A DNA stretch of 64,000 nt from Verrucomicrobiia bacterium (lineage in GTDB: Bacteria; Verrucomicrobiota; Verrucomicrobiia; Limisphaerales; UBA11358). Position 1 is the stretch's first letter; every line of letters starts with the position of its first letter. The stretch spans positions 2,333 through 66,332 of the forward strand of contig JBAVOO010000088.1 of assembly GCA_049692125.1 (NCBI GenBank), given 5' to 3'. Made by a program: the position numbers and the translations under genes. Below, one piece after another: positions 1,053-24,473 of this stretch. The notes below the pieces were generated by a model. It was not told the DNA's origin and did no database searches. It was given only the letters and a program-made list of their open reading frames with translations.

Positions 1053-1688
1053 TCAATTCGCATACTTGACGCTGCAACCGTAGGGCTTGGTTTGGGCAAC
1101 GGGCACGGGTTTGCCGGCCATCAAGGCGTCCACGGCTTCGCGGACGTAATTGCGCGCGGTCCGCGGGTCATGTTGCGGGTCCGGTTTGTTGTCAATCGCG
1201 CCGTCATAAACCAACACGCCGTTCTTATCAATCACATACATGTCCGGAGTGGTTTTCATGTCGTAAAGATGGCCGACGGCGCCGGAACTGTCATCAATCC
1301 AGGCCGTCGCAACAATTTTCTTGTCGGCCATTTCCTGTTTGGCCTGGTCGGGCGTGCGATGGCTGGAATTTTTGGGATTGACGGAATTGACGATGAGCCA
1401 CACGACGCCCTTGGCGGCCATGTCTTTTTCCAACTCCTGCATCGCGCCGGTCTTGTAATGATTGTTACAAAACGGGCAGTCGGAATTGTAAGATTCCAGC
1501 ACGACAATCTTGCCCTTGTAATCGCTGAGCTTGACCGTCTTGCCGTTGATGTCCGTGGCCGTGAAATCCGGGGCGGATTTTCCGATTTCCACCGCCAGCG
1601 CGTTCGCCGCCAGTGTCATTGCCGTCAATAATACAAATGCTCTTTTCATATGTTCAGAATTTTTAATTGTTCGGTTAAGAGACATCAA
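1053..1688 (-). CDS. Secreted TlpA/redoxin-like thioredoxin-fold protein
   Basis: Signal peptide MKRAFVLLTAMTLAANALA (the start may be 1649), a CPFC active site, and a thioredoxin-fold layout. Confidence 0.8.
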   Translation of the reverse strand: MMSLNRTIKNSEHMKRAFVLLTAMTLAANALAVEIGKSAPDFTATDINGKTVKLSDYKGKIVVLESYNSDCPFCNNHYKTGAMQELEKDMAAKGVVWLIVNSVNPKNSSHRTPDQAKQEMADKKIVATAWIDDSSGAVGHLYDMKTTPDMYVIDKNGVLVYDGAIDNKPDPQHDPRTARNYVREAVDALMAGKPVPVAQTKPYGCSVKYAN

Positions 1689-1799
1689 TCTAGACGGTTC
1701 CGTTCAAAAGTCAACGAGCCGTGTGGTGGAGAGTGGCACAGGCTTCCGGCCTGTGGTTTGGGTTCACAGGCGTGGACGCCTGTGCCACAATACAATCCG

Positions 1800-4016
1800 T
1801 CACCGCGCCGCGCGATCAAGGGCGGCGAGCACGATGCCCGGTGTCAGAATTTCAGGCAGGACAATCGGCGGCGCGGCGGCGTCCTTGGGATAAACCAAAA
1901 CCAGCGGCACCCCGGCGCGGTTGAAACGGTTCAGCTCCTCCGAAATGTTTTCGGGGAATCGCGTATAGTCGCCAAGCAACGCGACGGCGTTCATGGACTT
2001 GAGTTTCGCGCGCACGGACGCGATTTCGAGGCTGGTCTTTTTGTTGACCTGACAGGTGAGACACCAGTCGGCGGTGAAATCCACGATTATCGGGCGACCT
2101 TCGCTGCGCGCTTTCGCCACGGCTTCAGGACTCCAGCGCTGCCAGTCAATTCCGTCCGCCGATTCTTTCAGCGAACCGGTTGGGTCCGCAGCCGCCATTG
2201 GTGCGCGCCAATGCAACTGGCTTTCCAACACGCAAGCATAGCCCCCGACCAGCAAAATCAAAACGACAGCGAACGCGACGCCTTTACCGGCACGGCCACG
2301 CTGGACGAACTCGCCGAAAATCCACGCCGCAAACGCGACGACCACCAGAAAAACGCCCAGCCATAACACACGTCCGCCGTAACTGCCGGCGGCGAGGTTG
2401 AACAACCACACGGCGGTCGCCAGCATGGGAAAGCCCATCGCGATCTTGAACTTTTCCATCCATGCGCCGGGCTTCGGCAGGAATTTCAGCCACGCCGGGT
2501 TCCAGCTCAGCACGACATACGGCACGGCCAGCCCGACACCGACAGCGAGAAACATCAACAAAATCACCGGCGCTTTTTGCGCGAAGGCGAAGCCGAGGGC
2601 GATGCTCAAAAATGGCGCGGTGCAGGGCGTGGCCAATACCGTTGCCAGCACGCCGTTGAAAAATGCGCCCGCCGCGCCATGCTTCGACGCCAGTCCGCCC
2701 GCCGCGTCGAGCGCGCGTCCGCCGAGCGTGACTTCAAATACACCGAACAAATTCAATGCCACCAGCGTCACGAGTGTGGTGAGACAGACGACAAAGACCG
2801 GGCTGCCGAATTGCATTCCCCAGCCGGCGTGATGTCCGGCCGCCTTGACGCCGATGACGACCGCTGCAAGCGCGATAAACGACACCAGCACGCCGAGCGC
2901 ATAGACGAGACCGAGTTTGCGCACATGACGCGGGTCACTTCTGGCTTCACCGACAAAGCCGAGGATTTTCAACGCGATGACCGGCAACACGCACGGCATG
3001 ATGTTCAGAATCAATCCGCCGATGAAGGCGTAGAGCAGCATTTGCCAGAGCGGTTGCATAGGCACAATGGTGGTAGATGACATCGTGGCAGCAGAAGCAA
3101 ATTTCTTGGCAGTGACCTTATCGCTTATAGGAAGTTTCAAATTAAAACCCAAAGGTCTGCCGAAATTTTTCATGGCAATCACGCCGCTGATTTCCCTGGG
3201 CCAGTCGCCGGAATATTTCTTTACCAGTTTGCGCAAATAAAGAACAGCATGTGCGTGGGGGACATCTTCAGAGGTGGCCTGAATTTCAAAACTATCGCTG
3301 GCGTCAGGGAAAAAATCGACATCGGATATTTGCATTGACCCAGGTCTATTGCTGTCTGAGAACCGAATTATCAACGGACGTACGTCACCATTTGCCGGTT
3401 TTTCCCATTCTGCACTAACAGAATAAAATCTGTCATCAATGGGCTGAGGTACTCTGTCTTCCCATAATTCAATTGTCGCTAACGCATAGGCGGAAGTTTT
3501 GGTCTGGTCACCGACATTCAGCGTGGCTTCGACGTTGCCGCTACCGGGGACGCATTGATCCTTGCATTCGAGCCAGGAAACCTTGGCCTTCAAATCGAGC
3601 GGGCCGGGCTTCAAATTGGCGGCGAGCTTGAGCGGCACGAGCAGGACAACCTCGTCGTCGTAACCGTAGGTGGTGACTTCGGCGGGCGGCAATTTTTCCG
3701 GGAGCGGCCATTGGATTTCGCCGGCGGTGACGCCCGGCGGGAGTTGCCATTCGATTTTGGTGGCCATGCCGGCGGCGCCGGGATTTTTCCAGTAGGTGTG
3801 CCAGCCTGGCTCCATTTTCAAATCCACGCCTACCAGCACCGTGTCGCCGGGGCGCGCGGTGTCGGCGGACAAAATCAGCCGCACCTGGGTGTGGGCTGCG
3901 TGCGCAACGAGGGCCGCAAGGCAAAATAACATGCCTGCCAGAATGGTTCCAATGCGTCGCACAGGGATTAGATGCCAGATTTGACGGAATGTTTGAAGTG
4001 ATTTCGGGCTGAACAA
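1800..4016 (-). CDS. DsbD/ScsB-like thiol:disulfide interchange (protein-disulfide reductase) membrane protein
   Basis: N-terminal periplasmic domain (WLECKDQCVPG), central DsbD transmembrane core (NIMPCVLPV, ATPCTAPF), and C-terminal thioredoxin domain DFTADWCLTCQ. Confidence 0.85.
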   Translation of the reverse strand: MFSPKSLQTFRQIWHLIPVRRIGTILAGMLFCLAALVAHAAHTQVRLILSADTARPGDTVLVGVDLKMEPGWHTYWKNPGAAGMATKIEWQLPPGVTAGEIQWPLPEKLPPAEVTTYGYDDEVVLLVPLKLAANLKPGPLDLKAKVSWLECKDQCVPGSGNVEATLNVGDQTKTSAYALATIELWEDRVPQPIDDRFYSVSAEWEKPANGDVRPLIIRFSDSNRPGSMQISDVDFFPDASDSFEIQATSEDVPHAHAVLYLRKLVKKYSGDWPREISGVIAMKNFGRPLGFNLKLPISDKVTAKKFASAATMSSTTIVPMQPLWQMLLYAFIGGLILNIMPCVLPVIALKILGFVGEARSDPRHVRKLGLVYALGVLVSFIALAAVVIGVKAAGHHAGWGMQFGSPVFVVCLTTLVTLVALNLFGVFEVTLGGRALDAAGGLASKHGAAGAFFNGVLATVLATPCTAPFLSIALGFAFAQKAPVILLMFLAVGVGLAVPYVVLSWNPAWLKFLPKPGAWMEKFKIAMGFPMLATAVWLFNLAAGSYGGRVLWLGVFLVVVAFAAWIFGEFVQRGRAGKGVAFAVVLILLVGGYACVLESQLHWRAPMAAADPTGSLKESADGIDWQRWSPEAVAKARSEGRPIIVDFTADWCLTCQVNKKTSLEIASVRAKLKSMNAVALLGDYTRFPENISEELNRFNRAGVPLVLVYPKDAAAPPIVLPEILTPGIVLAALDRAAR

Positions 4017-4787: not shown

Positions 4788-6032
4788 ATGTTCATGAGTT
4801 CGGGACTGACAAAAGCCGCCCGGTACGGCGCGGTTTTGTGGGTGGCGTTTCTCTTCGGAGCGAGCTTCAAGGTCAATGCCGCGCCCGGCGTCGAAGCGAC
4901 GGCTGCCGCGAATCCTCAATCCGGACAGGTTCAAACAGTCCATCTCGATTACGTCGAGGTCGGGTATAGCTTCATTAACCGGGGACTCCCGCTGGTCACT
5001 CGATCCACGCCGTTCGCAAAGGAACCGGCGTTTGCCGGGAGCAAAGTCGTGCGCGGCACCTTCCAGCCCGGTGGCAGCGCCAGTAATGCAATCGCTTTTG
5101 CCTGGGACCGTGCCGCCGGAAAACTTTACCTCGATCTGAATCGCAACCTGGATTTGACCGATGACCCCGACGGCGTGTTTGGGTGCCTGGAGAAGAACTA
5201 TTCCGGACACTACCAGACATTTGCCAACGTCCGCCTGCCTTTTAAAACACCGTCAGGCAATCGCGAAATGCTCGTGGACCTCAACCTGAATGACTACGGG
5301 TCACGGCCCGGCTGCACTGCCGCCGTGCATTCATTCTGGCAGGGCAAGGTGACGCTACAGGGCGTGGAATGTCAGGTGGGTGTGGTGGAAAATCCTTTCA
5401 GCCGCTCCGATCCGGCCCCGGACGGATATCTGCTGTTGCGTCGCTGGGCGGCGCGGAATGAGCCGTTCAGCACGGACGCCGGCTCGTTTGTTGCCTTTCC
5501 CTTCCCGCGGAAATTGTTCTATCAAAACCAGGCCTGCCGGCTGGACTGCACCAACGAACTCTCGGGAAACAACGCCCGGCTCAAATTGCAGTTCACCGGC
5601 GAACAGCCGGTGCTGGGGGAGCTGAAAATCAACGGCCATTTTATTGAGCGTGCCATTCTGCAAGGCGGGCCGTATCTGGTGGTGCTGGACCAGCCGGAAA
5701 CGGTCGTGAAGGTTCCGGTGGGCAAATACAACCGGCCGGAAGTCTGGCTGAAGCAGGGCGACACCGTGGCCTATTACTCCACCTATTCGGTGCGACCGGA
5801 CCAGGGGATTACCATTGACGGGAACAAGCCGGGGTTGTTGGCGGCGGGTGGTCCGCTGACGAACTCGGTGTCCCTCAGCCGTCACGGGAAATCCCTGCGT
5901 TTCAATTACCAGTTGCTGGGCGCGGGCGGCGAGGTCTATCAACTGGCGCGGGTGGATCGCTCCCAGCCGCCTGAGTTCGCGGTGTACAAAGGCGACCGGA
6001 AAATCGCGTCGGGCAAATTCGAATTTGGCTGA
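4788..6032 (+). CDS. Secreted protein P1 ending ...KFEFG-TGA; candidate selenoprotein (TGA 6030-6032 possibly Sec)
   Basis: Signal peptide MFMSSGLTKAARYGAVLWVAFLFGASFKVNA (the six-frame ORF starts at 4719). Paralogue of 6920-8122. The frame stays open after the TGA and the downstream peptide is conserved. Confidence 0.7.
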   Translation: MFMSSGLTKAARYGAVLWVAFLFGASFKVNAAPGVEATAAANPQSGQVQTVHLDYVEVGYSFINRGLPLVTRSTPFAKEPAFAGSKVVRGTFQPGGSASNAIAFAWDRAAGKLYLDLNRNLDLTDDPDGVFGCLEKNYSGHYQTFANVRLPFKTPSGNREMLVDLNLNDYGSRPGCTAAVHSFWQGKVTLQGVECQVGVVENPFSRSDPAPDGYLLLRRWAARNEPFSTDAGSFVAFPFPRKLFYQNQACRLDCTNELSGNNARLKLQFTGEQPVLGELKINGHFIERAILQGGPYLVVLDQPETVVKVPVGKYNRPEVWLKQGDTVAYYSTYSVRPDQGITIDGNKPGLLAAGGPLTNSVSLSRHGKSLRFNYQLLGAGGEVYQLARVDRSQPPEFAVYKGDRKIASGKFEFG

Positions 6033-6917
6033 GGCAGCACCTGCTCGTACTCATGGCGAGTACCTTCCACGACCGCCGGCGAACTGAAGATTGTGGCCAT
6101 TTCCGATCTCGGAGGCCTCGGCGCGAAGGAAGGCGCTCCGGTCAGCTACCGGTGGACACCCCCCAGTCTCATCCCTTCATTTCTGCCGTGGCTGGCGGTT
6201 TTGCTGCTGTTATTGGCGAAGCCAAACCATTGCGGCCGGGCATGGTGGATCTGGCTGCCACTCGGATGTGTGGCGGCCATGGAACAATTGTCGCAGTCAG
6301 CCTTTGAATTTCTGCCATCGGGCACGGCAGACATGTTTCTGGAAATGGCGGGTTCGCTGGCCTTTGGCGTTGCCGCCGTCTGGCTGCTGGCGCCCCAACT
6401 GGCGCGCCGCCATCGCTTCGTCACTTTCCTGTGCCTTGCGCCCACCCTGGGGGTCTTCAGCCTTTTCAGTTTTTTGGTCAGGCAGGATTGGACCGGGGAC
6501 GGGGCCTCCCTGGCTTTGGCAATGCTGGTTCCGCTGGCCCTCAGCGTTCTTGTGGTTGCGCTGGCCATCTTTTTGGCCGGGTTGGCCTGCCGGGGCCGCT
6601 ATCATCCGCTGGGTCTCTACCTCTGGTTCTTCCTGTCAATGCTGGCGCTTTGGCTGGTGATTCTCACACCGTTCTTTGCCTTCGCAATGATTGTTTCGGG
6701 TGGTCAATTGCCGTGGCAGGAATTCTTCGTCGTGGTTTTGGTTCTGACGGCAGCCGGGTTCGTCACGCTGTTCCCGTTCCTGGTTCTGTCTTCCGCCAAC
6801 TCACTTTTCCGCGAACGGCTCAAGTTGCTGTTGCATTTGGGACGCGAAACTCCGCCACCGGTTTTGCCGCCGGAGATGGCGCCGTTGCCCGCCGCCAGAC
6901 CGGGAAAAAGTGTTTGA
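6033..6917 (+). CDS. Polytopic membrane domain, in frame with P1 across the TGA (alternatively an independent gene from GTG 6093)
   Basis: There is no stop between 6033 and 6917 in the P1 frame. The 20 linker codons GSTCSYSWRVPSTTAGELKI are followed by about 7 hydrophobic segments. Confidence 0.6.
   Translation, partial: GSTCSYSWRVPSTTAGELKIVAISDLGGLGAKEGAPVSYRWTPPSLIPSFLPWLAVLLLLLAKPNHCGRAWWIWLPLGCVAAMEQLSQSAFEFLPSGTADMFLEMAGSLAFGVAAVWLLAPQLARRHRFVTFLCLAPTLGVFSLFSFLVRQDWTGDGASLALAMLVPLALSVLVVALAIFLAGLACRGRYHPLGLYLWFFLSMLALWLVILTPFFAFAMIVSGGQLPWQEFFVVVLVLTAAGFVTLFPFLVLSSANSLFRERLKLLLHLGRETPPPVLPPEMAPLPAARPGKSV
6042..6062 (+). promoter_or_regulatory. Candidate SECIS-like hairpin 3' of TGA 6030
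   Basis: tgctcgt/gcgagta gives 7 pairs (including G-U) around the loop actcatg. The stem starts 12 nt after the TGA. Same register as the hairpin at 8134-8150. Folded by eye only. Confidence 0.45.
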
Positions 6918-6919: not shown

Positions 6920-8122
6920 ATGGCCAAAGAGTTTGAAAAATGTGTTATGCGAAAAATGGATTCCTTAAAACCTGTCAGAGGATTGGGAAAATGGGGCGCC
7001 TTCGCCGGATTGGTTCTGGCGACCACGGTGCTGGCGCAGCCCGAGCAATGGCTGGAATACCACACCAGCGCCGAGGGCCGCGCCTACCACCAGATGGAAC
7101 TGACCACCAACCCGCCGCCCGGCGTCGCCCTGCCCAAGCTGAACGCGCCGCCCTGGTTCGCGCGCTGGCTTACGCCGATGGACCCCGCCGGGGGCCGCTG
7201 GCTTTGTCTCGACCGCACGCGCAAGTCCGGCCCTTACGACCGGCTGTTCATTGACAGCAACGGCAATGGCCGGCTTGACGACAAAACACCTCTTCAAGCG
7301 CGGCTGGATTCCTACAACGCCTATTTTCCGCCGGCCCCCGTTGTCTTCAAGGGTGAGGACGGGCCGATTACCTATCATCTCGCGTTCCGGTTCTATCAAT
7401 ACGAAAAGAACCCCGCGCAATTGCTGGCATCGTCCGCCGGCTGGTATGAAGGCGTGGTGAATTTCGACGGCGCGAAAAAGCGCATCCAACTGATTGACGG
7501 CAACGTCAACGGCACGTTCAACGACGTCGCGCCGGACCCGTATGACAGCGACCGTGTCCAGATCGAAGGCGACAAAACCGGCGAGCGTTTTCTGGGCAAG
7601 ATGGTGGAAGTGGACGGCAAGCTTTTCAAAATCGAAGCCGCCCGCGACGGCGCGTTCGTCAAGGTGCAAAAGGCGGAAAACGTCACCCTCGGCCAGGTGC
7701 GCGTGCCGGAAAATATTTCCGAATTCGCCGCGTTCGGCGAGAACGGCCATTTCGTGCGCAAACCGGTGAACGGCGAATTCACCCTGCCGGCAGGCCATTA
7801 CCGGATCTTCCACTGGACGATCAACCGCAAGGATGAAAAGGGCGCGGCGTGGACGCTGTCAGGCTATAATTTCCCCCAAACCGCCGGCTTCGAGGTCGCC
7901 GCCGATAAAACCGCCGTGCTGGAAATCGGCGAGCCGGTGCAAGCCGTGCTCAAGGCGACCGAGAACACCAACCGCCAGGTCGCCTTCAGCCTCCGCTTCG
8001 AGGGCCGGCAAAAAGAAGCCATCGAGATGCTGCGCGACGGGCAGCGCCCGCGGGGGCCGAAATTGATGCTGGCCAACGCCGACGGGACGTTGTGTTATAC
8101 GAACACGTTCGAGTTTGGGTGA
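6920..8122 (+). CDS. Secreted protein P2 ending ...TFEFG-TGA; candidate selenoprotein (TGA 8120-8122 possibly Sec)
   Basis: Start MAKEFEKCVMRKMDSLK... with hydrophobic signal GAFAGLVLATTVLAQP (alternative starts 6947 and 6956). Paralogue of P1. The upstream part of ORF 6431-8122 overlaps the membrane domain in another frame. Confidence 0.7.
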   Translation: MAKEFEKCVMRKMDSLKPVRGLGKWGAFAGLVLATTVLAQPEQWLEYHTSAEGRAYHQMELTTNPPPGVALPKLNAPPWFARWLTPMDPAGGRWLCLDRTRKSGPYDRLFIDSNGNGRLDDKTPLQARLDSYNAYFPPAPVVFKGEDGPITYHLAFRFYQYEKNPAQLLASSAGWYEGVVNFDGAKKRIQLIDGNVNGTFNDVAPDPYDSDRVQIEGDKTGERFLGKMVEVDGKLFKIEAARDGAFVKVQKAENVTLGQVRVPENISEFAAFGENGHFVRKPVNGEFTLPAGHYRIFHWTINRKDEKGAAWTLSGYNFPQTAGFEVAADKTAVLEIGEPVQAVLKATENTNRQVAFSLRFEGRQKEAIEMLRDGQRPRGPKLMLANADGTLCYTNTFEFG

Positions 8123-8248
8123 GGCGGCGTTTGTTCGCTCTCATGGCGGGAGCCCAAAAATGTTCAGCGTCCGTTGGTTGGCAGTGTCAAAATCTTCAGC
8201 CCCTACCAGGTGCTGGCAAGTCCGTTGACGCTCGAAGCAAAAAAATAA
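8123..8248 (+). other. Open 41-codon extension after TGA of P2 (GGVCSLSWREPKNVQRPLVGSVKIFSPYQVLASPLTLEAKK, stop TAA 8246-8248)
   Basis: Translated by hand. It aligns with the post-TGA peptide of P1, and some of the differences are synonymous. Confidence 0.55.
8134..8150 (+). promoter_or_regulatory. Candidate SECIS-like hairpin 3' of TGA 8120
   Basis: ttcgc/gcggg gives 5 pairs (2 are G-U) around the loop tctcatg. The loop position relative to the TGA is identical to P1. Confidence 0.4.
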
Positions 8249-8259: not shown

Positions 8260-11200
8260 ATGAAAATGACACGGCAATTCCTTCTGGTTTCTGCCGCTTC
8301 GGTGCTCTTGGGCTTTGGCACGCGCGCCCAGGTACAGGAACGGTTGCAGCCCATCATTCAAAGAGCGCCGGCCACCGGCGCCAACACCAGCCCGCAAAAA
8401 ACCAACTGTACCGGAACGGTCACGGACACCACCGGCAATCCCGTGGCCGGTGCGGCGGTGGAGTATTGGGGTTACGAGGGAAATCCATTCCTGGCAAATC
8501 CTCTGGAGCTAAAAAAACAAGTCACCACGGGCGCGGATGGCGCTTTTGAATTTCCGGCGTCGCGGGCCATGGGATTTTTGCTGGCGCGAAAGCCGGGACT
8601 GGCGCCGGCCTGGAAACAATTGGGTCAGCCATTTAATCCCGCCGGTGAGACGGAAGAACGTTTGGTGTTGACTCCGCCGGCGGCGCTGTCGGGCGTGGTG
8701 GTGGACGAAGCGGACAAACCGGTCGCCAACGCCGAGGTTTCCGTGGCCACGGCCATCAGCGAAATGTCACAGGAAGGCAGTGTGCGGACTTTCAATTACA
8801 TCACCGGCAAACCCGCGCACGATTGTTTTACCGCCCGCACGGATGCCGCCGGCCGTTTCCGCATTGAAAATTTTCCAACCAACGCCACGGCCACCCTTGT
8901 GGTTCAGGCGCCGGGAAAAGTTCTGCGCCCATCATCGCAGGATTCCGCTGGCTTGGACTCGCTGCCGTGGCGCGCGGGACAGGAGGACATCAAATTGGTC
9001 ATGGAGCCGGCCGGCAGCATCGAAGGCAAAATCATCGCCGAGGGAAGCAACCAACCGCCGCCCGTTGCGCGGCTGGCGTTGCGGCCCGACGGGCCGGGCT
9101 TTTTCGGTTTCGGCGAGCGCGAGCCGGCGCAATCCGGCACGGACGGCGCGTTCCACATCAGCGACGTGTCCGCCGGTTCCTACCGGATTCAGGCCGTCTT
9201 CGGCACCAACGCCATTCCGGAATGGGTCGCGGAGGCGGTTCCGGTTTCCGTTGAAGTCGGGAAAACCACTCGCGGCGTGCAGTTGACTGCGGTGCGCGGT
9301 GGTTTGCTGGAAGTGGTCGTGCTGGGACAAAGTGATCGCAAGCCGCTGGCACAGGTCATGGTCAATGCCTACCGGGAAAATTTTCAAACCGCCGGCACTT
9401 CCGACAGCAACGGCATCGCCTTCCTGCGGCTGACGCCGGGTGATTATCAGGTGATGGCGTTCCGTGAATCCATGCCCGCAAACCAGACCTCCGCCAGCGT
9501 GGAAACCGGCAAGACGAATCGCATGGAGATGGAAATCGCCGCCCCGAAGCAAATCACCGGCATCGTTCGCCAGCCGGACGGCCAGCCGGCGGCGGGATTG
9601 CTGGTGAGAATTGTGGGTGGTTTTGGCGCCAATGCGGGCGAGGTCAAGACCGATGCCGGCGGCAAATTTGAGCTGGAATGGAATCAGCGTCCATTCGGAC
9701 AAAACGACACGACCGCCTGTATTCTGGTCCGGGACCCGGAACATAATCTGGCCGTGGCGCAGGACCTGGACGAGGACACCACCCATCTGGATTTGAAGCT
9801 CGCGCCGGGACTCACGCTGGCTGGCCGGGTGGAATCCGACGGCAAACCGGTCACCAATGCGACCGCCTCGCTCGTTTTCTGGGCCGGCCGCAGCGGTTCG
9901 TGGCTTCAAGGTCTGGCCCGCACCAACACCCCGGGACAATATGAAATTCCCGCGCTGCCACCCGGCAGAAAATACGGCGTCATCGTCTCCGCGCCGGGTT
10001 ACGGGCAGCGGCAGATGCAAAATCTCGACATCTCCGCCGATGCCGGCCGTCAGGAACTTGATCCGGTGGAACTCAAGCCGGCGAATCTCAAACTCGCCGG
10101 CCAGGTGCTCGACCCGGACGACAAGCCGGTTGCGGGCGCTAATGTGAATCTTTCCGGCGAAGTCCAGCCGAACGCGAACGCGCGCACGGACCGCGAGGGA
10201 CGATTCCGCTTCGAGCATGTCTGCGAAGGCCCGGCTCAACTCTCCGCCAACAGCCAGCGTTCCTTCGGCAACGTTTCGGCGGAGGGCGGCGACACGAACG
10301 TCGTCCTCCGGCTCGGTCAAACTTATAACAGCGCCCCCGGTTCCATGGCGCACAAGCTGAAAGGCACGGTGACGGATGCTGATGGCAAACCTGCCGCCGG
10401 CGTGCAGGTGGCGGTGTTTCCAGCCAATGGCATGGTGCGCTGGACCAGGACTGCGACCAACGGCGCGTTCAACCTTACCTGGTCGCTCCAGCCGTGGCAG
10501 TTGCAAAACGGAGGCGCGATGCTTGTATTCCGCGACCCGGCGCGCAACCTGGCCGGCACGGAGGAGTTGCCGGAGGAAACCACGAACCTCGATGTGAAAT
10601 TGAAACCCGCGCTGGCATTTTCCGGGCAGGTGAAAAATGCCGACGGCGCTCCGTTGACCACGGCCCAAGTCGGTTTGTGGCTCAAGGCGGGCAACAGCTA
10701 CGAACAGCTAAATGAGCAGACGACCAGCCCCGTCAATGCTGAAGGCCGTTTTGAAATCAAGTGCCTCCCGCCGGACGCGCAGTACATTGTTTATGCGTCG
10801 GCCAAAGGTTACGGCAAGGGCCAGCGGCAACTTCAGCCGGAATACGAATCGAACCGCGTGGAACTGTCGCCGTTCGTCCTCAAGCCCGCCGACCGGGTCA
10901 TCGCCGGACAGGTGTTGAAAGATGACGACAAACCGGCGTCCGGTGTGAACGTGCAATTAAATGGCGAAGACCAGCCGGATGGTTACATGACCACCGACAG
11001 CCAGGGCCGGTTTCATTTTCAGGTTTGCGAGGGACAAATCCGCCTGTTTGCCTATTCGCAAAATGGCGGTGGCAACGCGCAGGCTACGGTCGAGGCGGGC
11101 GACACCAATGTCGTGATGACCTTGAGTTCCCAGTCGGGGAATATTCTCCAGACACCGCGTCGCGCCTCGCTCAAAGGCAGCCCGCTGCCCGATTTGGCCA

Positions 11201-11574
11201 CGGTGAATCTCGGCAGCGACACCGCGCCCGCCGGCCAGGCGGTGTTGCTGTGCCTGTTCGACGCGAGCCAGCGCCCGTCGCGGCACGTGGTCCACCAGTT
11301 GGATGAACAGGCCGCCGCACTACGGCAGCAGGGCGTCACGGTGCTGGGCGTTCAAGCCGCAGTCACCAGCGATGAAACATTCAATGAATGGAAAAGCGGC
11401 AGCCCGGTTTCATTTTCAGTCGGGCGTGTGACGGAGAGATCCGAAAAATCAAAATGGGCCTCGGCAGTTCCAGCATTGCCGTGGCTGATTCTGGCCGACG
11501 CCAATCATCGCGTGATCGCAGAAGGTTTCGCGCTCGACGAGCTGGACGCGCAGATCAGGAAATTACCGAAGTGA
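8260..11574 (+). CDS. Giant secreted protein with ~9-10 carboxypeptidase-regulatory-like (Ig-like) repeats and a C-terminal degenerate thioredoxin-fold domain
   Basis: Signal peptide MKMTRQFLLVSAASVLLGFG. Recurrent G(T/Q)V.D.DGKP.AGA.V units. The C-terminus has a TlpA-like layout (VLLCLFDASQRPSRHVVHQL...VTVLGV...PWLILAD), but SQRP replaces CxxC. Confidence 0.75.
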   Translation: MKMTRQFLLVSAASVLLGFGTRAQVQERLQPIIQRAPATGANTSPQKTNCTGTVTDTTGNPVAGAAVEYWGYEGNPFLANPLELKKQVTTGADGAFEFPASRAMGFLLARKPGLAPAWKQLGQPFNPAGETEERLVLTPPAALSGVVVDEADKPVANAEVSVATAISEMSQEGSVRTFNYITGKPAHDCFTARTDAAGRFRIENFPTNATATLVVQAPGKVLRPSSQDSAGLDSLPWRAGQEDIKLVMEPAGSIEGKIIAEGSNQPPPVARLALRPDGPGFFGFGEREPAQSGTDGAFHISDVSAGSYRIQAVFGTNAIPEWVAEAVPVSVEVGKTTRGVQLTAVRGGLLEVVVLGQSDRKPLAQVMVNAYRENFQTAGTSDSNGIAFLRLTPGDYQVMAFRESMPANQTSASVETGKTNRMEMEIAAPKQITGIVRQPDGQPAAGLLVRIVGGFGANAGEVKTDAGGKFELEWNQRPFGQNDTTACILVRDPEHNLAVAQDLDEDTTHLDLKLAPGLTLAGRVESDGKPVTNATASLVFWAGRSGSWLQGLARTNTPGQYEIPALPPGRKYGVIVSAPGYGQRQMQNLDISADAGRQELDPVELKPANLKLAGQVLDPDDKPVAGANVNLSGEVQPNANARTDREGRFRFEHVCEGPAQLSANSQRSFGNVSAEGGDTNVVLRLGQTYNSAPGSMAHKLKGTVTDADGKPAAGVQVAVFPANGMVRWTRTATNGAFNLTWSLQPWQLQNGGAMLVFRDPARNLAGTEELPEETTNLDVKLKPALAFSGQVKNADGAPLTTAQVGLWLKAGNSYEQLNEQTTSPVNAEGRFEIKCLPPDAQYIVYASAKGYGKGQRQLQPEYESNRVELSPFVLKPADRVIAGQVLKDDDKPASGVNVQLNGEDQPDGYMTTDSQGRFHFQVCEGQIRLFAYSQNGGGNAQATVEAGDTNVVMTLSSQSGNILQTPRRASLKGSPLPDLATVNLGSDTAPAGQAVLLCLFDASQRPSRHVVHQLDEQAAALRQQGVTVLGVQAAVTSDETFNEWKSGSPVSFSVGRVTERSEKSKWASAVPALPWLILADANHRVIAEGFALDELDAQIRKLPK

Positions 11575-12048: not shown

Positions 12049-12145
12049 GGAGGTGTAAGGCGACCTGGTGGCGCTCACGGTCTTCAAAACCGCTGTGGGG
12101 CTCAACAAAGTCCCAGGTGGGTTCGATTCCCATCCGCCTCCGCCA
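12049..12145 (+). tRNA. selC: tRNA-Sec (anticodon TCA at 12084-12086)
   Basis: 97 nt. Extended acceptor stem ggaggtg/cgcctcc, anticodon loop cttcaaa, long variable arm tgggg-ctcaacaaag-tccca, T-loop gttcgattc, 3' gcca. Confidence 0.9.
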
Positions 12146-12166
12146 GTTCGAAAACTGTGGGGCAAC

Positions 12167-12239
12167 GGAGTGTTGGAGTATTGGAGTATTGGAATTCTGC
12201 GCCCTCCACCACCCCATCACTCCATTGCTCCATCACTCC
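12167..12239. repeat. Repeat family R2 (inverted arrays of GGAGTNNT octamers)
   Basis: ggagtgttggagtattggagtattgg ... ccatcactccattgctccatcactcc. Confidence 0.75.
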
Positions 12240-12257
12240 GCTTCCGCCTCCTTCGCC

Positions 12258-12620
12258 ATGAAACGCATCCCACAACCAAAGGTGGATCCCGCCCTGCGGG
12301 ATGTGGAACACCATGATTTCTGGCCCGGCTTCATCGCCGTCCTGATCGGCGGCGTCCTTGCTTTTGGCGGTGCGCGGCATCTGACCGGCGTGGACACGGT
12401 CGGGGGAAGCACCGCCTCGGAAATCCAGTTGGTCAAGGCTTTCTCCTCCGGCGGCGTGCAATATGCGAGTCAAATTGTTCCCCCGCCGCCGCCGAAACTG
12501 GATGACCCGTCCGCGGAAGCCGAAGCGCTCGACCGCTGGGCCAAACAGCAGGCCAACGCGACACCTCCCCAATGGAAGATCCGGGTTGACACGGACGCGA
12601 AGACGCCTTGTCCCACCTGA
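12258..12620 (+). CDS. Small hypothetical membrane protein
   Basis: MKRIPQPKV... with one hydrophobic helix (FWPGFIAVLIGGVLAFGGA). The upstream part of ORF 12117 runs over tRNA-Sec and the R2 repeat. Confidence 0.45.
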   Translation: MKRIPQPKVDPALRDVEHHDFWPGFIAVLIGGVLAFGGARHLTGVDTVGGSTASEIQLVKAFSSGGVQYASQIVPPPPPKLDDPSAEAEALDRWAKQQANATPPQWKIRVDTDAKTPCPT

Positions 12621-12654
12621 ATAAAATAATTTCCGGTCACACGGCGTGGCCGAT

Positions 12655-12816: not shown

Positions 12817-13701
12817 ATGGACTGTCCCGTGCCCAATTGTCAGGAGCGTGAACCGACGGCGCTCGGACGGAAGCTGTCGTGCCTTCGTCCCTGGTTGCAG
12901 ACGGGCTTTCTCGGCATCTGGCTGGCACCGGTGGGCCGATGGCTGCACGGCATCCCCGGCTGTGTTTTCCACTGCTATTCCTGCCCGCTGTCTTCGTTCG
13001 CCTGCCCCGTGGGCGTGGCGGCGAACTACGCTGCGCTCCTGCCCGCCGCGTTCGAAGTGCCCTACCTGCTCATCGGTCTGCTGCTGGTCGTCGGTGCGGT
13101 GAGCGGCTCGCTCGTCTGCGGCTGGGCGTGCCCGTTCGGTTTCCTGCAGGATCTCCTCGGGAAAATCACCCGCAGGAAAGTGGCGTTGCCGGGCTGGATG
13201 GGTTACACGCGTTACGTCGTGCTGTTGGGATTGGTGCTGCTGCTGCCGATGGTTCTCGGCTTCAATGGTATTCCTTACGAGAACCAGGTCGTTTCCATCT
13301 GCCGGCTTTGCCCGGCGGGCGCGCTGGAAGCCGGCGTGCCTTATTCGGTCCAAAGTGTTTTGGCCGGCAAAGGTTGGGTCATGAGCTGGTTCAAAACGGG
13401 CATTCTGCTTTCCTTCCTCGCCGCCGCCTTGTTTGTTCACCGTCCGTGGTGCCGCATTTTTTGTCCGCTGGGCGGTTTTCTCGCGCTCTTCAACCGGTTC
13501 AGCCTGTTTCATCTCCGGTTCAATCCCAAGGAATGTGTGGAATGCAACCTCTGCCGCAGCCGGTGTTCGATGGGGGTGAAGGTGGACCAGAAAGTGAACG
13601 TGTCCGGCTGCATCCGCTGCCTCGAATGCACCACCTGCGGCGCGATTGAACCCTGCTTCGCCCTGCCGCAAAACGCGCCGCCAGACAAGGCGACAACTTG
13701 A
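12817..13701 (+). CDS. Membrane 4Fe-4S-binding protein (NapH/MauN-like polyferredoxin type)
   Basis: CPFGFLQDLL, CRLCPAGALE and CRIFCPLGG motifs between hydrophobic helices. C-terminal CVECNLCRSRC and CIRCLECTTC ferredoxin motifs. Confidence 0.75.
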   Translation: MDCPVPNCQEREPTALGRKLSCLRPWLQTGFLGIWLAPVGRWLHGIPGCVFHCYSCPLSSFACPVGVAANYAALLPAAFEVPYLLIGLLLVVGAVSGSLVCGWACPFGFLQDLLGKITRRKVALPGWMGYTRYVVLLGLVLLLPMVLGFNGIPYENQVVSICRLCPAGALEAGVPYSVQSVLAGKGWVMSWFKTGILLSFLAAALFVHRPWCRIFCPLGGFLALFNRFSLFHLRFNPKECVECNLCRSRCSMGVKVDQKVNVSGCIRCLECTTCGAIEPCFALPQNAPPDKATT

Positions 13702-19311: not shown

Positions 19312-20100
19312 TCAAAGCCCTCCCGGCCGTCGAGACGGCCCGGCGAGAATGGCCGCACCCAGCGCGCCGGTGAATTGCGGTTGCGGGGCGACGTGGACGG
19401 GACAAGCCAAAACTTCCTCCAGGGCGCGGGCCATGCCGGCCTGCAACGCGACGCCGCCGGTAAAATAAACCGGCGGCGAAACGAACCGGCCGGCCAGCGC
19501 CGAAACGCGCGTGGCGATGGAATTTTGCACGCCGGCCACCACGTCCGGCAGGGGCTTGCCTTCGGCCAGCAGACCGATGATTTCCGTCTCGGCGAACACC
19601 ACGCACATGTTGCTGATGAGCGCGGGTTTTTTGCTTTGGCGCGCCACTTCCGCCAGCTTTTCCCAATTCAGGTCCAGCCGTGTCGCAACCATTTCCAGAA
19701 AACGTCCGGTGCCCGCGGCGCAGCGGTCGTTCATCGCAAAATCGCGGACCCGCCCGCCGTCTTCGAGACTGATGACCTTGCTGTCCTGTCCGCCGATTTC
19801 AATGATCGTGCGCGCGTCGGGAGCCACGTGATGCACTCCGCGCGCATGGCACGTAATCTCGGTGATGGTGGTGTCGGCGAAATGGACGGTGTTGCGTCCG
19901 TAGCCGGTGGCCACCACGCCGGAGATCTGCGACCGCTCCAGTCCCGCATCCTTCAAGAGTTTTTCAAAAAGTTCCGCCGCCAGCCGTTCCTGTTCCACGC
20001 CCTGGTCGGTCAGGCCGGAAGCGAGAACTTGCATCCGGTCGGTGTCAAACAACACCGCCTTGATGGAGCGCGAACCCGCGTCTATGCCGGCGCAAATCAT
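19312..20100 (-). CDS. BcrAD/BadFG-type ATPase (acyl-CoA dehydratase / DCCP activase, HgdC-like)
   Basis: MICAGIDAGSRSIKAVLFD, GYGR, IIEIGGQDSK and the CAAGTGRFLE cluster-binding motif. Confidence 0.85.
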   Translation of the reverse strand: MICAGIDAGSRSIKAVLFDTDRMQVLASGLTDQGVEQERLAAELFEKLLKDAGLERSQISGVVATGYGRNTVHFADTTITEITCHARGVHHVAPDARTIIEIGGQDSKVISLEDGGRVRDFAMNDRCAAGTGRFLEMVATRLDLNWEKLAEVARQSKKPALISNMCVVFAETEIIGLLAEGKPLPDVVAGVQNSIATRVSALAGRFVSPPVYFTGGVALQAGMARALEEVLACPVHVAPQPQFTGALGAAILAGPSRRPGGL

Positions 20101-21482
20101 TTGGTTCTCCTGGCCTTCGCGGTTTCAATGAGTGCCTGCAACCGCGAGCCGAGGGTCGGCAGCATGGCATCACATACCGGCGGAATTTCAAGTTCGATTG
20201 CGGGAATTCCGATTTTTCGCCGCACGATTTCGAGGATGATTTCCCCCTCGCGGGCGCAGTGGCTAGCACCGGGAATGCGCGAGACGACCACGGCCCCGGC
20301 GTGGCTGGCCTGACATTCGCGGACGATGCGCCCGGCACGGTCGGCCGTCGGGCCGACCATCGGATCGGCCAGTGCGGTGCGGGCCAGCGCTTCCAGCGGC
20401 GGCAGATTTTCGGGAATCAAATCCAGTGTGTGCGTGAACATGTAATCCGAACCGCAAATGCGCCCGCCGAGTTCCTCCAGCAGGTTCATCGCGCGCAAAT
20501 CCGCGACCGGATTCACCCAGAAAACCCGCACGGCGTCGGCGCCGATGACAAACTGGTTTTGCCTGACGCGCGATTGAGCCTCGGCCAGCAAGTCCTCAAG
20601 CACGGCGACGGTTTCCCCGCGGTCGGAGCAGAAATGAATCGCGAGCATTTCCGCCACGAGCATTTCCAGGGCGGGCAAGGGAGCGGCGGGTGCGGAATAA
20701 ACGGTCCGGCGCAATGTGTCCAGCAGCCGGCGCGCTTGATTCGCCGCGCGGATGCCCGCTGCCAGGCGGCCGTCGTCCAAAGTTTTTCCGGCCAGTTCAC
20801 CCAGTGCCTGGCCGACGCGCTGCAATTCGGCCCGCACACATTCCACCTGGATTTTCGGCGCGGCAAGATTGCCCGGCAGCGCACAAGCGGCTTCCCCGGG
20901 CGCTGGGGAACGGCGGCGCGGGATTTCCCACCAAAAAATGGAATGTCCGAGATGTTCCAGCCGCTGCGCGATGGCTGAAAAATCGTCGCAGACCGCGCCG
21001 GTGCTGCAAATTAGCAAATCCGGCCGCGGAAAATGTTCGCCATTCTCGAAGGCCGGCAGCATTGCGCGCACCGGACAAAACGAGGCGTCCATGCCCATCG
21101 CTTCCGCCTGCTGGAGCAGCTTGTCGCCGCATTCCATGAGACACGGCGTCCACCACGCGCCGTCCGGATAAAACGCCCGCACACCGGGCAGGGAATAGGC
21201 CATGACGGGGACCGTGCCGAGGTCTTTCATCGTGCCGACAATTTTGTCGCCGCTGGCGCGGGCCTGGTGCAACCGCTCGTTTTCCGTCAGCAGAAAATTC
21301 CAGAGGCGCAGCGCGGCGGGCGAGTTGTCGAACTGCAATTGCTCCAGCCGGAAATCTTTTTCGCGGACGACATGACGCCGCAGCGGCCCGCTATAACCGG
21401 TTTCGCGCAGGCCGTCCCGCCGGAGTTGCTCGTAGCGGTCGTCCCACTCGTCCAGATTCAACTTGCGCGGCGAAGTGTTCAT
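20097..21482 (-). CDS. 2-hydroxyacyl-CoA dehydratase family protein (large subunit-like)
   Basis: HgdA/HgdB/BcrB-family look (GTMKDLGTVPVMAY, SFCPVRAML, ICSTGAVCDDF). 4-nt overlaps with both neighbouring genes. Confidence 0.7.
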   Translation of the reverse strand: MNTSPRKLNLDEWDDRYEQLRRDGLRETGYSGPLRRHVVREKDFRLEQLQFDNSPAALRLWNFLLTENERLHQARASGDKIVGTMKDLGTVPVMAYSLPGVRAFYPDGAWWTPCLMECGDKLLQQAEAMGMDASFCPVRAMLPAFENGEHFPRPDLLICSTGAVCDDFSAIAQRLEHLGHSIFWWEIPRRRSPAPGEAACALPGNLAAPKIQVECVRAELQRVGQALGELAGKTLDDGRLAAGIRAANQARRLLDTLRRTVYSAPAAPLPALEMLVAEMLAIHFCSDRGETVAVLEDLLAEAQSRVRQNQFVIGADAVRVFWVNPVADLRAMNLLEELGGRICGSDYMFTHTLDLIPENLPPLEALARTALADPMVGPTADRAGRIVRECQASHAGAVVVSRIPGASHCAREGEIILEIVRRKIGIPAIELEIPPVCDAMLPTLGSRLQALIETAKARRTK

Positions 21483-22447
21483 CTGAGCGTTTCCACAAAA
21501 GCTTGGAGGCGGTTGAACTCGCGCGGTGCGGCGCCCGGTTCTCCGCCGGCTTCAAGCAGCAAAACCGGCAGGCCGAAAGATTCGCGCAAGGTCTGCGCCT
21601 CGGCGCGCCACAGATCGCAGCCGGTGAAAAGCCAGAGCACGATGCCGCGCACGTGGCGGGATGCCAGCCGCGGCTTCAGCCACGAATAAAGCCGCGTATT
21701 CGGCCGCTGGAACACGTCAACGATGTTGTCGCAACAGCCTTGGACGAGCACGTCGAATGGATGGTTTGCGCCAGTTTCAATTTCAAACGCCGGGGACAGG
21801 CTGCGCTCGCCGGTTTCGGTCGCGTTCAGCACGACACGTCCGCCAACGGCCTCGATTTCGTCCAGCACTTTCCAGTGCGGCGCGAGAAACGGCCCGCCGA
21901 CCAGGGCGAGCGGAATTTGATTTGCCGGCGCGGCCGGCGGCGGCGGTGAAAAAGCGCCGTCCCAATGAAATCGCGCCACGGCTTCGGCAAATCCGCGCGG
22001 AGAACCGGCTGACGCCGATTGGAGCAAACGTTTTCGCGTCCGGCTGGATTGTAACATTTCCTGCCACAACTCTTCGGGCGATGGCGCCCGGCCGCCGATG
22101 GCCAGGAGAAATTGTCCCAGCCGTTCCAATTCGGAGCGGAATATCTGCCCGGCCGCCGCCGTCTGCCACGTTGCCGGCAGGTTGAACAAAAACGCGCGGC
22201 GCTGTCCGCGGAGAATCGCCACGTCAAAGCCGCGCCGCAACTGGTCGCAGGCCGTTGAAAAAATCACGGCGGAATCCGTCTGCGCCCCGGCAAACCGGAC
22301 TGCGGCCTCCGCAAACGCGCAAACGCCGGCGGAAAGCGGCCACGCGCCGGTCTGGAAATTTTCCGCCGACCAGATCCCGCGCGGTTGCAACCCGTGCGCC
22401 CGGACCCATTCGGCGGGAATCCACGGGCTGGTGAGGAACACGTCCAT
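21479..22447 (-). CDS. 2-hydroxyacyl-CoA dehydratase family protein (small subunit-like)
   Basis: Family-like layout (IFSTACDQLRRGFD, LWLFTGCDLW). Translationally coupled to its neighbours. Confidence 0.6.
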   Translation of the reverse strand: MDVFLTSPWIPAEWVRAHGLQPRGIWSAENFQTGAWPLSAGVCAFAEAAVRFAGAQTDSAVIFSTACDQLRRGFDVAILRGQRRAFLFNLPATWQTAAAGQIFRSELERLGQFLLAIGGRAPSPEELWQEMLQSSRTRKRLLQSASAGSPRGFAEAVARFHWDGAFSPPPPAAPANQIPLALVGGPFLAPHWKVLDEIEAVGGRVVLNATETGERSLSPAFEIETGANHPFDVLVQGCCDNIVDVFQRPNTRLYSWLKPRLASRHVRGIVLWLFTGCDLWRAEAQTLRESFGLPVLLLEAGGEPGAAPREFNRLQAFVETLR

Positions 22448-22461
22448 TTTACGCGCCGGTT

Positions 22462-23268
22462 TTACCGGGTTTTTTCCGCGACGATGAGACCCTGGATGAT
22501 TTTTCCGGCTTGGGCGAGCGATTGAACAAAACGCATTTCCCCGGTGAGGGTTTGCGCGAGGGCGGTGTCGAAGCCGATGATTTTCAGCGCGTCGAAGGTC
22601 AGTTGTTTTTCAATCATGTCGAGGTAAAGCGACACGCAGGCGGCGAAGCGTCCGGTATCCTGCGCGACCCGCACGGAGCAGCCGCTGGCTTCGAGCAGCG
22701 ACTGGTATTCGCCGGACGTGAGCACGTTGGGAAATTTCATGAAACCGAGATAACGAGCGGCCTCGTCACCGGTCAATCCAGCCGGGCCTTCCATCCAGTC
22801 GGTGAAAACAATTTTGCCCTGCGGTTTGATCAGCCGGGCCGCCTCGGCGATCAACTTCGCCTTGTCCTCAACGTAGCACCACGCGTCTTCGCCCCAAACG
22901 AAATCAAACCGGCCGGCTGGCAGGCCGGTCGCGCAGGCGTTGCCTTCGACGAATGAAATTTTTTCCGCGAGCCCTTCGTCAGCGCAGCGGCGGCGGCCCA
23001 GTTGCAGCACGGCGGGCGTGGCGTCCACGCCGGTCATGTGCGCCACGTTGAGGAAGCGCGCTAAAAACCTCATGCCCGCGCCGTTACAACAGCAGAGGTC
23101 AACACCCCGTGCGCCGGCGGCGATGCCGGCGCGCCGGGCGAGTTCCATCGAGGATTGGAAGCCGCCGAGGTGAATTTGTTCGCCCATGAGCAGTTCCCAG
23201 AGGCGGCCTTCCGGCCCGGAATAAACGGCTTGGACATCCGACAGGTGAATTTGGGGTGCTGATTTCAT
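22462..23268 (-). CDS. Class I SAM-dependent methyltransferase
   Basis: Motif I VDLCCCNGAGMRFLA, followed by GVDATP and FDFVWGEDAWCYV. Confidence 0.8.
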   Translation of the reverse strand: MKSAPQIHLSDVQAVYSGPEGRLWELLMGEQIHLGGFQSSMELARRAGIAAGARGVDLCCCNGAGMRFLARFLNVAHMTGVDATPAVLQLGRRRCADEGLAEKISFVEGNACATGLPAGRFDFVWGEDAWCYVEDKAKLIAEAARLIKPQGKIVFTDWMEGPAGLTGDEAARYLGFMKFPNVLTSGEYQSLLEASGCSVRVAQDTGRFAACVSLYLDMIEKQLTFDALKIIGFDTALAQTLTGEMRFVQSLAQAGKIIQGLIVAEKTR

Positions 23269-24473
23269 GGTGATTGTCTGCTGCGAATTGTCTCAAACAA
23301 AGCTTCGACGCGCGCCGAAATTCTCGCGGAGTCCGACGGCGAATAATCCGTCGTGATTTTCAGGTAGGGAAGATGAAGCTCCTCCTCGGCCAGTTTGCGG
23401 ACGTGGAATGATTCGATGTCGTAGGTGAGGCACGCCTGCCAGACCAGTTCGATGACGCAGTGCGGACGGAATTTCGCCGCGAGCGAGCGAAGCGTTTCGA
23501 AACGCCGGACGTTCGGCGTCATGACCGAACACGGCAGATGGTAGTATTTCCGGGCGATGGCGCACAGGGGATCCGGCTCGTCCAAATCCACATCATCGAG
23601 AATCGGTTTGAGGCCGGTGCAGTTTTCCATGGCGACCACCACCGCGCCGGCGGCTTCGATCAGTTCCAGCACGCGTTCCGCGCCGTGGACGATCGGCACG
23701 CCCGTCAGCAGGACGCGGATTTCTGACTTGTTCCGCTGGTTCGTCCTGGTTGGCTGTTGATTTGCATCGCCGCTAAAAACTTCAAGGGCGCGTTCATACT
23801 GCCGGAGATCCTCTTCGACGCCGGAAATGATGCTTTTGAACTCGATCAATTGCCGCCCCGTAAGCGGCGGCGGGTCACGCATCATCAGGGCGGCCAGTTG
23901 CCGCCGCAATCCGCGTTCACGATTCATCAGCCGGATGGCTTCGCGAAGCTTCTCATCGGTGATGTTCGTGTGGAAGCGCTGCTCCAGGTGTTCCTTGAGT
24001 TTCCGCACCTCGTGTGTCCAGCGTTCGAGCGCGTCGGGGTCATCGGCTTTCTGGGGCAGTTCGAGCACATACATCGGCTTCGTGGCGCCCATCAGCTCGA
24101 ACATCTTCTTCTTCCCATCGCAAGTCGTCTCGGCGACCACCAGGTCCGACCAGTTCAAAAATGGATTTGAGCCTTTGACGTGATACCCGAAGGTGGACTT
24201 GATCAGGGGGCACAGATTGGCCGGCAGATATTGTTCCGCCTCCGGAATGGTTGCCGCGGAGCCGCCGCACAGGCAGACCGGCACGGCGCCGGCGGCGAGG
24301 ATGATTTCGCGTGGCGTGAACTCGCACAGGATGCCCACGATCGGCCGGCCTTCAGCCTTGGCGGCTTCGGCGTAATCGTAGCAGTGGTCCATCATGCCGG
24401 CAAACCAGGCCAGCGGTTCCGGCAAAGCTTCTGCGCGCGCGGCGGGTGATTGACAGCAAGGATTATGTGCCAT
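23265..24473 (-). CDS. Double-cubane-cluster-type / 2-hydroxyacyl-CoA dehydratase D-component-like reductase
   Basis: ILCEFTPREIILAAGAVPVCLCGG, LCPLIKS, AETTCDGKKK and HLPCSVMTPN resemble the YjiM/DCCP family as I remember it. Confidence 0.6.
   Translation of the reverse strand: MAHNPCCQSPAARAEALPEPLAWFAGMMDHCYDYAEAAKAEGRPIVGILCEFTPREIILAAGAVPVCLCGGSAATIPEAEQYLPANLCPLIKSTFGYHVKGSNPFLNWSDLVVAETTCDGKKKMFELMGATKPMYVLELPQKADDPDALERWTHEVRKLKEHLEQRFHTNITDEKLREAIRLMNRERGLRRQLAALMMRDPPPLTGRQLIEFKSIISGVEEDLRQYERALEVFSGDANQQPTRTNQRNKSEIRVLLTGVPIVHGAERVLELIEAAGAVVVAMENCTGLKPILDDVDLDEPDPLCAIARKYYHLPCSVMTPNVRRFETLRSLAAKFRPHCVIELVWQACLTYDIESFHVRKLAEEELHLPYLKITTDYSPSDSARISARVEALFETIRSRQSP

Follow-up and report, generated by a model that had tools for sequence, protein, structure and literature searches.

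Comparative evidence for a widespread membrane-anchored bacterial selenoprotein family annotated as two hypothetical genes

Introduction

The catalogued bacterial selenoproteins share an in-frame UGA read as selenocysteine (Sec), a Sec residue near a Cys, a dependence on selA, selB, selC and selD, and a downstream hairpin, the selenocysteine insertion sequence (SECIS), located within 16-37 nt downstream of the UGA; in addition, Cys homologs outnumber the Sec forms of nearly all selenoenzymes (PMC13188914). Among the described systems closest to the locus studied here, the selenocysteine-assisted organometallic (SAO) system is a cassette of several selenoproteins, exported and membrane-bound (Haft and Gwadz, bioRxiv 10.1101/2022.07.06.499078), while the DsbD/CcdA relays and the DsbD-like selenoprotein TsoB (NF045694) have a redox-type pair in the periplasm, set above a polytopic domain of the inner membrane. 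Here, we analyse a gene, P1, and its neighbourhood in a 64,000-nucleotide stretch (hereafter the window) of a Verrucomicrobiia bacterium (Limisphaerales, UBA11358; assembly GCA_049692125.1, contig JBAVOO010000088.1, forward-strand positions 2,333 to 66,332). P1 carries an in-frame TGA followed by a long open frame, and a first-pass annotation made from the sequence had proposed that this TGA could be recoded, fusing a periplasmic domain to an integral membrane module.

Our comparative analysis indicates that P1 is very likely a single gene whose UGA is read through as Sec. In the following, the sequence evidence for this architecture is presented first, followed by the predicted structure, the genomic context and the alternative readings.

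One reading frame across a conserved TGA

The in-frame TGA of P1 lies at 6030-6032, preceded by ...GKFEFG, and the frame then stays open for 294 sense codons (6033-6914) up to consecutive TGA and TAA stops; the open frame to 6917 reported in the first-pass annotation was correct, and its figure of about 295 codons includes the stop, since 6033-6914 hold 294 sense codons. The open reading frame (ORF) 6093-6917 shares the P1 frame. The database P1 protein has 412 residues and extends from 4794 to the Gly preceding the TGA, and the best 120 database homologs all end at this same Gly. At 94 of 95 distinct homologous sites, taken from metagenome loci and from genomes recorded as Verrucomicrobiota, Planctomycetota, Hydrogenedentota, Sumerlaeota/BRC1, Aminicenantes and others, the codon following this Gly is TGA; the remaining site is frameshifted, and TAA or TAG is never found.

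Of 87 complete extensions, 80 continue in frame for 268-349 codons and contain about 4-8 hydrophobic segments, and the shared frame of P1 is therefore not a product of chance. In five of the other seven, the same membrane domain recurs with a frameshift, and the remaining two are single-transmembrane (TM) variants with one C-terminal anchor. Conservation in P1 is highest past the TGA, where invariant C, W, R, V and P fall within the codons previously regarded as a linker (6033-6092), over which the ratio of nonsynonymous to synonymous changes (pN/pS) is 0.39 versus 0.26 directly upstream. The position of GTG 6093, from which gene finders start a second gene, holds a start-type codon in only 41 of 81 homologs and is preceded by a Shine-Dalgarno-like sequence in none; ten loci have no ATG, GTG or TTG at all within the first 44 codons, and the annotated starts of the "second gene" are scattered (+10, +18, +20, +21, +23 and later).

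Natural fusions of the two halves also exist. In a search of 1.84 billion representatives, eight of the best 150 proteins join both halves of P1 in one TGA-free ORF, so that the comparison of fused and split orthologous loci suggested in the first-pass annotation comes out in favour of fusion. In these eight proteins, Trp, Arg, Gly or Asn occupies the Sec position, or the loop is remodelled; the partner Cys is also missing from six of them. The Cys codon that had been envisaged as joining both parts is present in none.

Evidence for selenocysteine insertion

A hairpin at 6047-6063 is conserved beyond the TGA. Across 63 sequences, all 378 of 378 cells were paired, 14 of them through compensatory changes, and the covariation score was far above slid controls and not reached in any of 500 shuffles, although the relatedness of the sequences inflates these figures. 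Synonymous divergence is 0.17 inside the hairpin versus about 0.6 on both flanks, and the rare codons CGA, GTA and TCA are retained. The same hairpin occurs at the same spacing past the TGA of the adjacent paralog, P2, and past TGA 12618 of a small protein with a C-P-T-U motif. Bacterial SECIS hairpins have a G close to the start of the apical loop; in P1 this G is the second base of a UGG triloop once the outermost loop bases are taken to pair, as G-C does in 12 homologs. The spacing of the P1 hairpin agrees with the bacterial SECIS model (PMC13188914), while its loop and energy agree with it loosely. An Rfam scan of the window retrieved no match to a SECIS model. Because folding z-scores of the whole region were not significant (-0.7), it is covariation that carries the case for the hairpin.

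The genes needed for Sec insertion, selA, selB, selC and selD, are all located within the window, 6-13 kb from P1. In the genus, the three genomes with selA all carry P1, versus none of the 22 without it; in a sample of 301 genomes of the phylum, the P1 domain is present in 9 of 18 genomes with selA and in 0 of 283 without, and selA was found in 44 of 49 further carrier genomes. TGA is the commonest stop of this genome, ending 382 of 700 long ORFs, and the genetic code is therefore the standard one. A genome-wide generic selenoprotein scan returned 175 candidates and was too noisy for use.

Several observations weigh against this interpretation. Folded alone, the hairpin reaches -7.1 kcal/mol, slightly short of the model value of -7.5, and the loop G stands at position 3 unless an A.C pair is counted, making the fit to the bacterial SECIS consensus loose. 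Five of the 49 further carrier genomes, which are metagenome-assembled genomes (MAGs) of unstated completeness, have no selA match, and the related genomes in the co-occurrence counts are not independent. Finally, no Cys-form ortholog of P1, a sign that ordinarily backs a selenoprotein assignment though not a required one, was found, either in the eight TGA-free fusions or in further protein searches. Nevertheless, the conservation of the TGA, the covarying hairpin and the co-occurrence with selA all support the recoding of TGA 6030. On this comparative evidence, the UGA of the P1 mRNA would be decoded as Sec by SelB and tRNA-Sec, guided by the in-frame hairpin.

Predicted structure and topology

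The AlphaFold prediction, based on 62 read-through sequences with Cys substituted for Sec, gave a model (predicted local distance difference test, pLDDT, 88; predicted template modelling score 0.76) with all-beta N-terminal regions, seven membrane helices and one short amphipathic helix. This agrees with the roughly seven hydrophobic segments noticed previously, while a crude hydropathy scan of the extension counts six. Together with the conserved frame and the natural fusions, the model supports the proposed fusion of a periplasmic part with an integral membrane module. The substitution of Cys for Sec, and a pLDDT below 50 for the Sec loop in the full model, count against it.

Folded alone, the 111 residues around the TGA are predicted to form a seven-strand sandwich, with four strands before the TGA and three after, and no helix of four or more residues. 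This predicted domain aligns end to end with Ig/FN3-like domains and places the Sec on a flexible loop. It shares its fold with the C-terminal region of PorU (6za2; Z 9.0, root-mean-square deviation 3.7, 98 residues) and with an IL-6 receptor domain (8qy5; Z 8.8, deviation 2.9, 92 residues), but these matches are generic, with 9-13% identity and many ties, and imply no function. The sequence U-G-S-T-C is present as previously read, although its description as a "UGxxC" motif in the sense of UxxC was wrong, the spacing being U-x-x-x-C.

In the seven-helix domain, the loops carry 2.3-3.1 Lys and Arg residues each on the inside and 0.5-0.7 on the outside. From this pattern and the apparent signal peptide, the Sec domain is predicted to face the periplasm, directly above the membrane, the orientation that the topology check proposed in the first-pass annotation was to test. 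The predicted topology consists of a signal peptide, the periplasmic Sec domain and seven TM helices with the C-terminus inside, and the acidic DLNRNLDLTDD loop of the N-terminal region may be calcium-loop-like. Among the Cys columns of the membrane domain, Cys609 is conserved in 89% and every other column in at most 40%.

Similarity searches gave no family assignment. No family was retrieved when P1, P2 and 62 read-through homologs were scanned against Pfam and NCBIfam, and a sequence search of the PDB with P1 retrieved no match. Foldseek searches with the whole P1 model gave low-TM matches only, the whole-model searches being filled by the Ig domain; in these searches, made with the whole model only, the membrane domain had no meaningful fold match, and no internal repeat was detected in it. 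Atlas feature searches returned hypothetical clusters only, with a weak GEVED lead (38% of one cluster).

Genomic context

The features of the locus are given in Table 1.

Table 1. Coordinates of P1, its parts and its neighbouring genes in the window.
Feature	Position	Strand	Remarks
P1, proposed full-length selenoprotein coding sequence	4794..6917	+	start uncertain: ATG 4764, 4788 or 4794; product about 707-717 residues, dependent on start chosen; stop TGA 6915-6917, backed by TAA 6918-6920
Predicted cleavable signal peptide	4794..4880	+	basic n-region, hydrophobic core, V-N-A cleavage box; read by eye
N-terminal all-beta region, predicted periplasmic, no known family	4881..5855	+	conserved DLNRNLDLTDD acidic loop
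Predicted Sec-bearing Ig/FN3-like beta-sandwich domain	5856..6161	+	four strands before TGA, three after
UGA, proposed Sec codon, residue 423 (numbered from 4764)	6030..6032	+	TGA at 94/95 distinct homologous sites
Cys427, invariant Cys of U-x-x-x-C	6042..6044	+	
SECIS-like hairpin	6047..6063	+	6-bp stem; loop AUGGC starting 20 nt past UGA
GTG, gene-finder start	6093..6095	+	internal Val codon, not true start
Predicted seven-helix membrane domain and C-terminal amphipathic helix	6171..6833	+	N-out/C-in by positive-inside rule
Cys609, CRxRY motif, cytoplasmic end of TM5	6588..6590	+	conserved in 89% of aligned homologs
P2, soluble paralog with same Sec domain	6947..8248	+	TGA 8120-8122, hairpin 8137-8153
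CarboxypepD_reg-repeat protein, weak C-terminal AhpC/TSA match	8260..11574	+	conserved neighbour
tRNA-Sec (selC)	12049..12145	+	
Small membrane-anchored protein ending C-P-T-U-I-K	12258..12629	+	TGA 12618-12620, hairpin 12634-12652, same spacing
NapH/NosR-like 4Fe-4S membrane protein	12817..13701	+	conserved neighbour
selD	13785-15416	-	
selB	15652-17607	-	
selA	17702-19141	-	
BadF-type activase, two HGD-D-like proteins, S-adenosylmethionine (SAM) methyltransferase, double-cubane reductase	19312..24473	-	directly upstream of selA

The extension of P2 beyond its TGA is 41 codons long, to TAA 8246-8248, as previously counted, which is the length needed to finish the Sec domain. The hairpin of the C-P-T-U-I-K protein lies past its stop codon, and a CxxU motif with a hairpin was found in 14 other loci; this protein is probably a third selenoprotein, a candidate for another undescribed family. 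Neither a formate dehydrogenase above cut-off nor selU was found in this 94% complete genome, and P1, P2 and the CxxU protein may therefore be the main clients of Sec here.

In the 61 genome loci with enough flank, the neighbours of P1 include P2-like genes (at most 37, a count that includes a few P1 cross-matches), NapH-like Fe-S proteins (27), CarboxypepD-repeat proteins (26), selB (15) and the double-cubane reductase (11), and tRNA-Sec was found in 27 of 78 genome loci of P1. The double-cubane reductase of the window (23265-24473) matches NF040772 above cut-off, and the gene set at 19312-24473 is linked to P1 in distant genomes and phyla. The NF040772 reductase is present in all nine P1 carriers of the phylum sample, yet in only 13 of the 301 genomes overall.

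Other features of the window were also recorded. SelD is the Cys form (GCASK); a Cys-rich segment extends it at the N-terminus, and it has a CMD/AhpD domain at the C-terminus. A dsbD and a redoxin gene lie at 1053-4016 on the minus strand, divergent from P1, a pairing seen in 2 of the 61 loci. Short imperfect repeats, CCGAAA/TTCGGA-like and GGAGTATT/CTCCAT-like by eye, lie in intergenic DNA at 12650-12815 and about 12150-12240, and a full-length MISL RNA (RF03079, 610 bits) lies at 52359-53116 on the plus strand.

Distribution and family variants

The P1 family comprises 1,112 cluster representatives at E-values up to 1e-30. The closest relatives that carry a name are MAGs of Verrucomicrobiota, many belonging to Limisphaerales or subdivision 3. 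The region after the Sec domain varies by gene and not by readthrough: it is absent in P2, a seven-TM domain in P1, a single anchor in loci L069, L070 and L068, and F5/8 plus LamG domains in others. In the P1-type genes at L069:9372-9689 and L070:9207-9524, the place of the seven-TM module is taken by a linker of low complexity and a single C-terminal helix whose basic tail gives it the look of a sorting signal. Orthologs of P2 (L024:4734-6287, L054:11519-12169 and L084:3844-5532) run on into F5/8 type C and LamG domains, some of them anchored C-terminally. In other genomes of the phylum (L115-L118, L121, L122 and L131), 250-510 residues precede the U-x-x-x-C motif, which is followed by 40-49 residues; because these distant members carry it in such a setting, the Sec domain appears to be a mobile module.

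Two Sec-less relatives were also recorded. At L110:4235-7028, a version of P1 with TGA changed to TGG (Trp) lies by a truncated selA, a tRNA-Sec and HGD-D genes, and this locus looks like a decaying Sec cassette; at L109:181-5805, the genes immediately upstream of a fused homolog that lacks Sec encode an extracytoplasmic function sigma factor and a Ser/Thr kinase. Frameshifts in or near the P1-type gene of L025, L034, L043, L047, L074 and L078 are all from MFD-series MAGs and are probably assembly indels instead of real breaks.

Possible function and alternative readings

The functional product would be the full-length, tethered P1, in which a signal peptide is followed by all-beta periplasmic domains, by an Ig/FN3-like domain close to the membrane that carries U-x-x-x-C, and by a seven-helix inner-membrane domain. 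In this protein, the periplasmic Sec/Cys pair could capture electrons or a compound of a soft metal or metalloid on the outer side of the inner membrane, and the seven-TM domain would couple this site to the CxxU protein, the Fe-S membrane protein, the double-cubane reductase and the methyltransferase. Such a capture or electron hand-over at the Sec/Cys loop, coupled to cytoplasmic Fe-S chemistry, is possible, if still short of probable; we favour it because of the analogy with the SAO system, and it is a point against it that gene neighbourhood is its single source of evidence. In a broader and more doubtful proposal, P1 would serve an undescribed selenium-dependent pathway as its receptor or conduit in the membrane. 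This pathway would be self-contained, with three selenoproteins, sel genes of its own, a polyferredoxin, the double-cubane reductase and the methyltransferase; Sec at the Ig-fold U-x-x-x-C loop would be irreplaceable by Cys, and the compound transformed, in bacteria of wetlands, soils and sediments, would be one of a metal or metalloid.

Alternatively, the Sec/Cys pair could be a thiol-disulfide site for exported proteins, re-reduced through Cys609 of the membrane domain in a DsbD/CcdA-like way, with no role for a metal, a reading that we regard as the main rival, if a rather unlikely one. It would fit the periplasmic U-x-x-x-C loop above a polytopic domain with one well-conserved Cys on the cytoplasmic side, as well as the presence of dsbD and a redoxin upstream in the window, and the periplasmic redox domain of DsbD is Ig-like too. 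However, P1 has one conserved membrane Cys and not the facing pair of DsbD/CcdA, it matches no DsbD family, and a linkage with dsbD was rejected since the two genes are neighbours so rarely (two of 61 loci). Moreover, thiol oxidoreductase selenoproteins normally have abundant Cys homologs (PMC13188914), and none were found for P1.

The first-pass annotation had regarded U-G-S-T-C as a hinge between two domains and had suggested that termination at the UGA yields a soluble periplasmic protein and Sec insertion a tethered one, with selenium supply setting the ratio. Termination at UGA competes with Sec insertion in bacterial selenoproteins generally, so that P1 probably yields some truncated protein as well, and this would retain, besides its signal peptide, the roughly 320 residues of beta domains that precede the broken one. 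Nevertheless, a functional role for both products is improbable, because the TGA lies in a loop inside one seven-strand Ig/FN3-like domain, and not at a domain boundary, and the 41 codons of P2 just complete that domain. Stopping there removes three of the seven strands, the Cys and the Sec itself; no homolog has fixed the short form with TAA or TAG, and those that lost the TGA retain the full-length fusion. In addition, soluble and differently anchored versions exist as separate paralogs such as P2, which has the same UGA context and no membrane domain to switch to. The hinge and switch models were therefore rejected, and termination at the UGA of the full-length, tethered P1 would give an incomplete by-product.

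A third possibility is that the UGA is read as Trp, Gly or Cys and not as Sec, through a changed genetic code or leaky readthrough. PMC13462651 reports a reassignment of UGA to Trp in some Verrucomicrobiota, and one fused homolog has TGG at the Sec site. In contrast, TGA is the main stop of this genome, which excludes a changed code; P1 tracks selA and often adjoins selA, selB, selC or selD, a conserved hairpin lies at SECIS distance, and the TGG homolog itself adjoins a truncated selA. This reading is thus very improbable.

Finally, a separate membrane-protein gene starting at GTG 6093 and sharing the frame by coincidence, which is how gene callers annotate the locus throughout the databases and which the first-pass annotation held as its alternative, has next to no probability and was rejected, given that orthologues show no frame change, gap or conserved start, that the intervening codons are under selection at both the protein and the RNA level, and that single-ORF fusions exist.

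Comparison with described systems

The recoding mechanism of P1 is known, and the family, its fold, its motif spacing, its apparent lack of Cys orthologs and its cassette are not in the sources checked. Among the 119 bacterial selenoprotein families catalogued in PMC13188914, compared by name, motif and model accession, no entry has the motif or architecture of P1, and a literature search, beyond whose reach lie most subscription journals, retrieved no description of the family. The family is of wider interest in several respects. Firstly, the P1 family is systematically misannotated as two hypothetical genes. Secondly, the P1 domain is found in about half of the Sec-capable genomes sampled in the phylum (9 of 18) and may be the reason why they keep Sec. 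Thirdly, an Ig-fold U-x-x-x-C site for which no Cys counterpart was found runs against the rule of Cys homologs (PMC13188914), and P1 is therefore a test case for what selenium does that sulfur cannot.

P1 resembles the catalogued selenoproteins (PMC13188914) in its in-frame UGA, its downstream hairpin, its dependence on selA, selB, selC and selD and its Sec near a Cys. It differs from them in matching no Pfam or NCBIfam model, in its U-x-x-x-C spacing, in its Ig/FN3-like fold and in the Cys orthologs, none of which were found. This spacing also separates P1 from the thioredoxin-fold UxxC/CxxU oxidoreductases, as does its predicted all-strand domain, in contrast to an alpha/beta domain with the motif at a helix N-terminus. 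In regulated stop-readthrough switches, the recoded stop is located at a domain boundary and the short product is viable, whereas the stop of P1 falls inside one domain. With DsbD, CcdA and TsoB, P1 shares a redox-type pair in the periplasm above a polytopic inner-membrane domain, but it shows no sequence match to them, its helices number seven, it conserves just one Cys, at the cytoplasmic end of a helix, and its Sec sits in an Ig-like loop.

The SAO system (Haft and Gwadz, bioRxiv 10.1101/2022.07.06.499078) differs from the P1 cassette in its proteins: P1, P2 and the CxxU protein match none of the NCBIfam Sao models (SaoA/B/C/L/P/T/X), and the scanned genes of the cassette yielded neither an ABC transporter nor a MerB-like lyase. 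The P1 cassette is also set apart by its presence in Verrucomicrobiota, Planctomycetota, Hydrogenedentota and others and by carrying its own sel genes. Nevertheless, both are cassettes of several selenoproteins with exported and membrane members, and both are tied to the NF040772 double-cubane reductase and its activase. Double-cubane reductases of unknown substrate are here linked to a selenoprotein cassette for a second time and independently, and by analogy the pathway of the P1 cassette would work like the SAO system with unrelated proteins.

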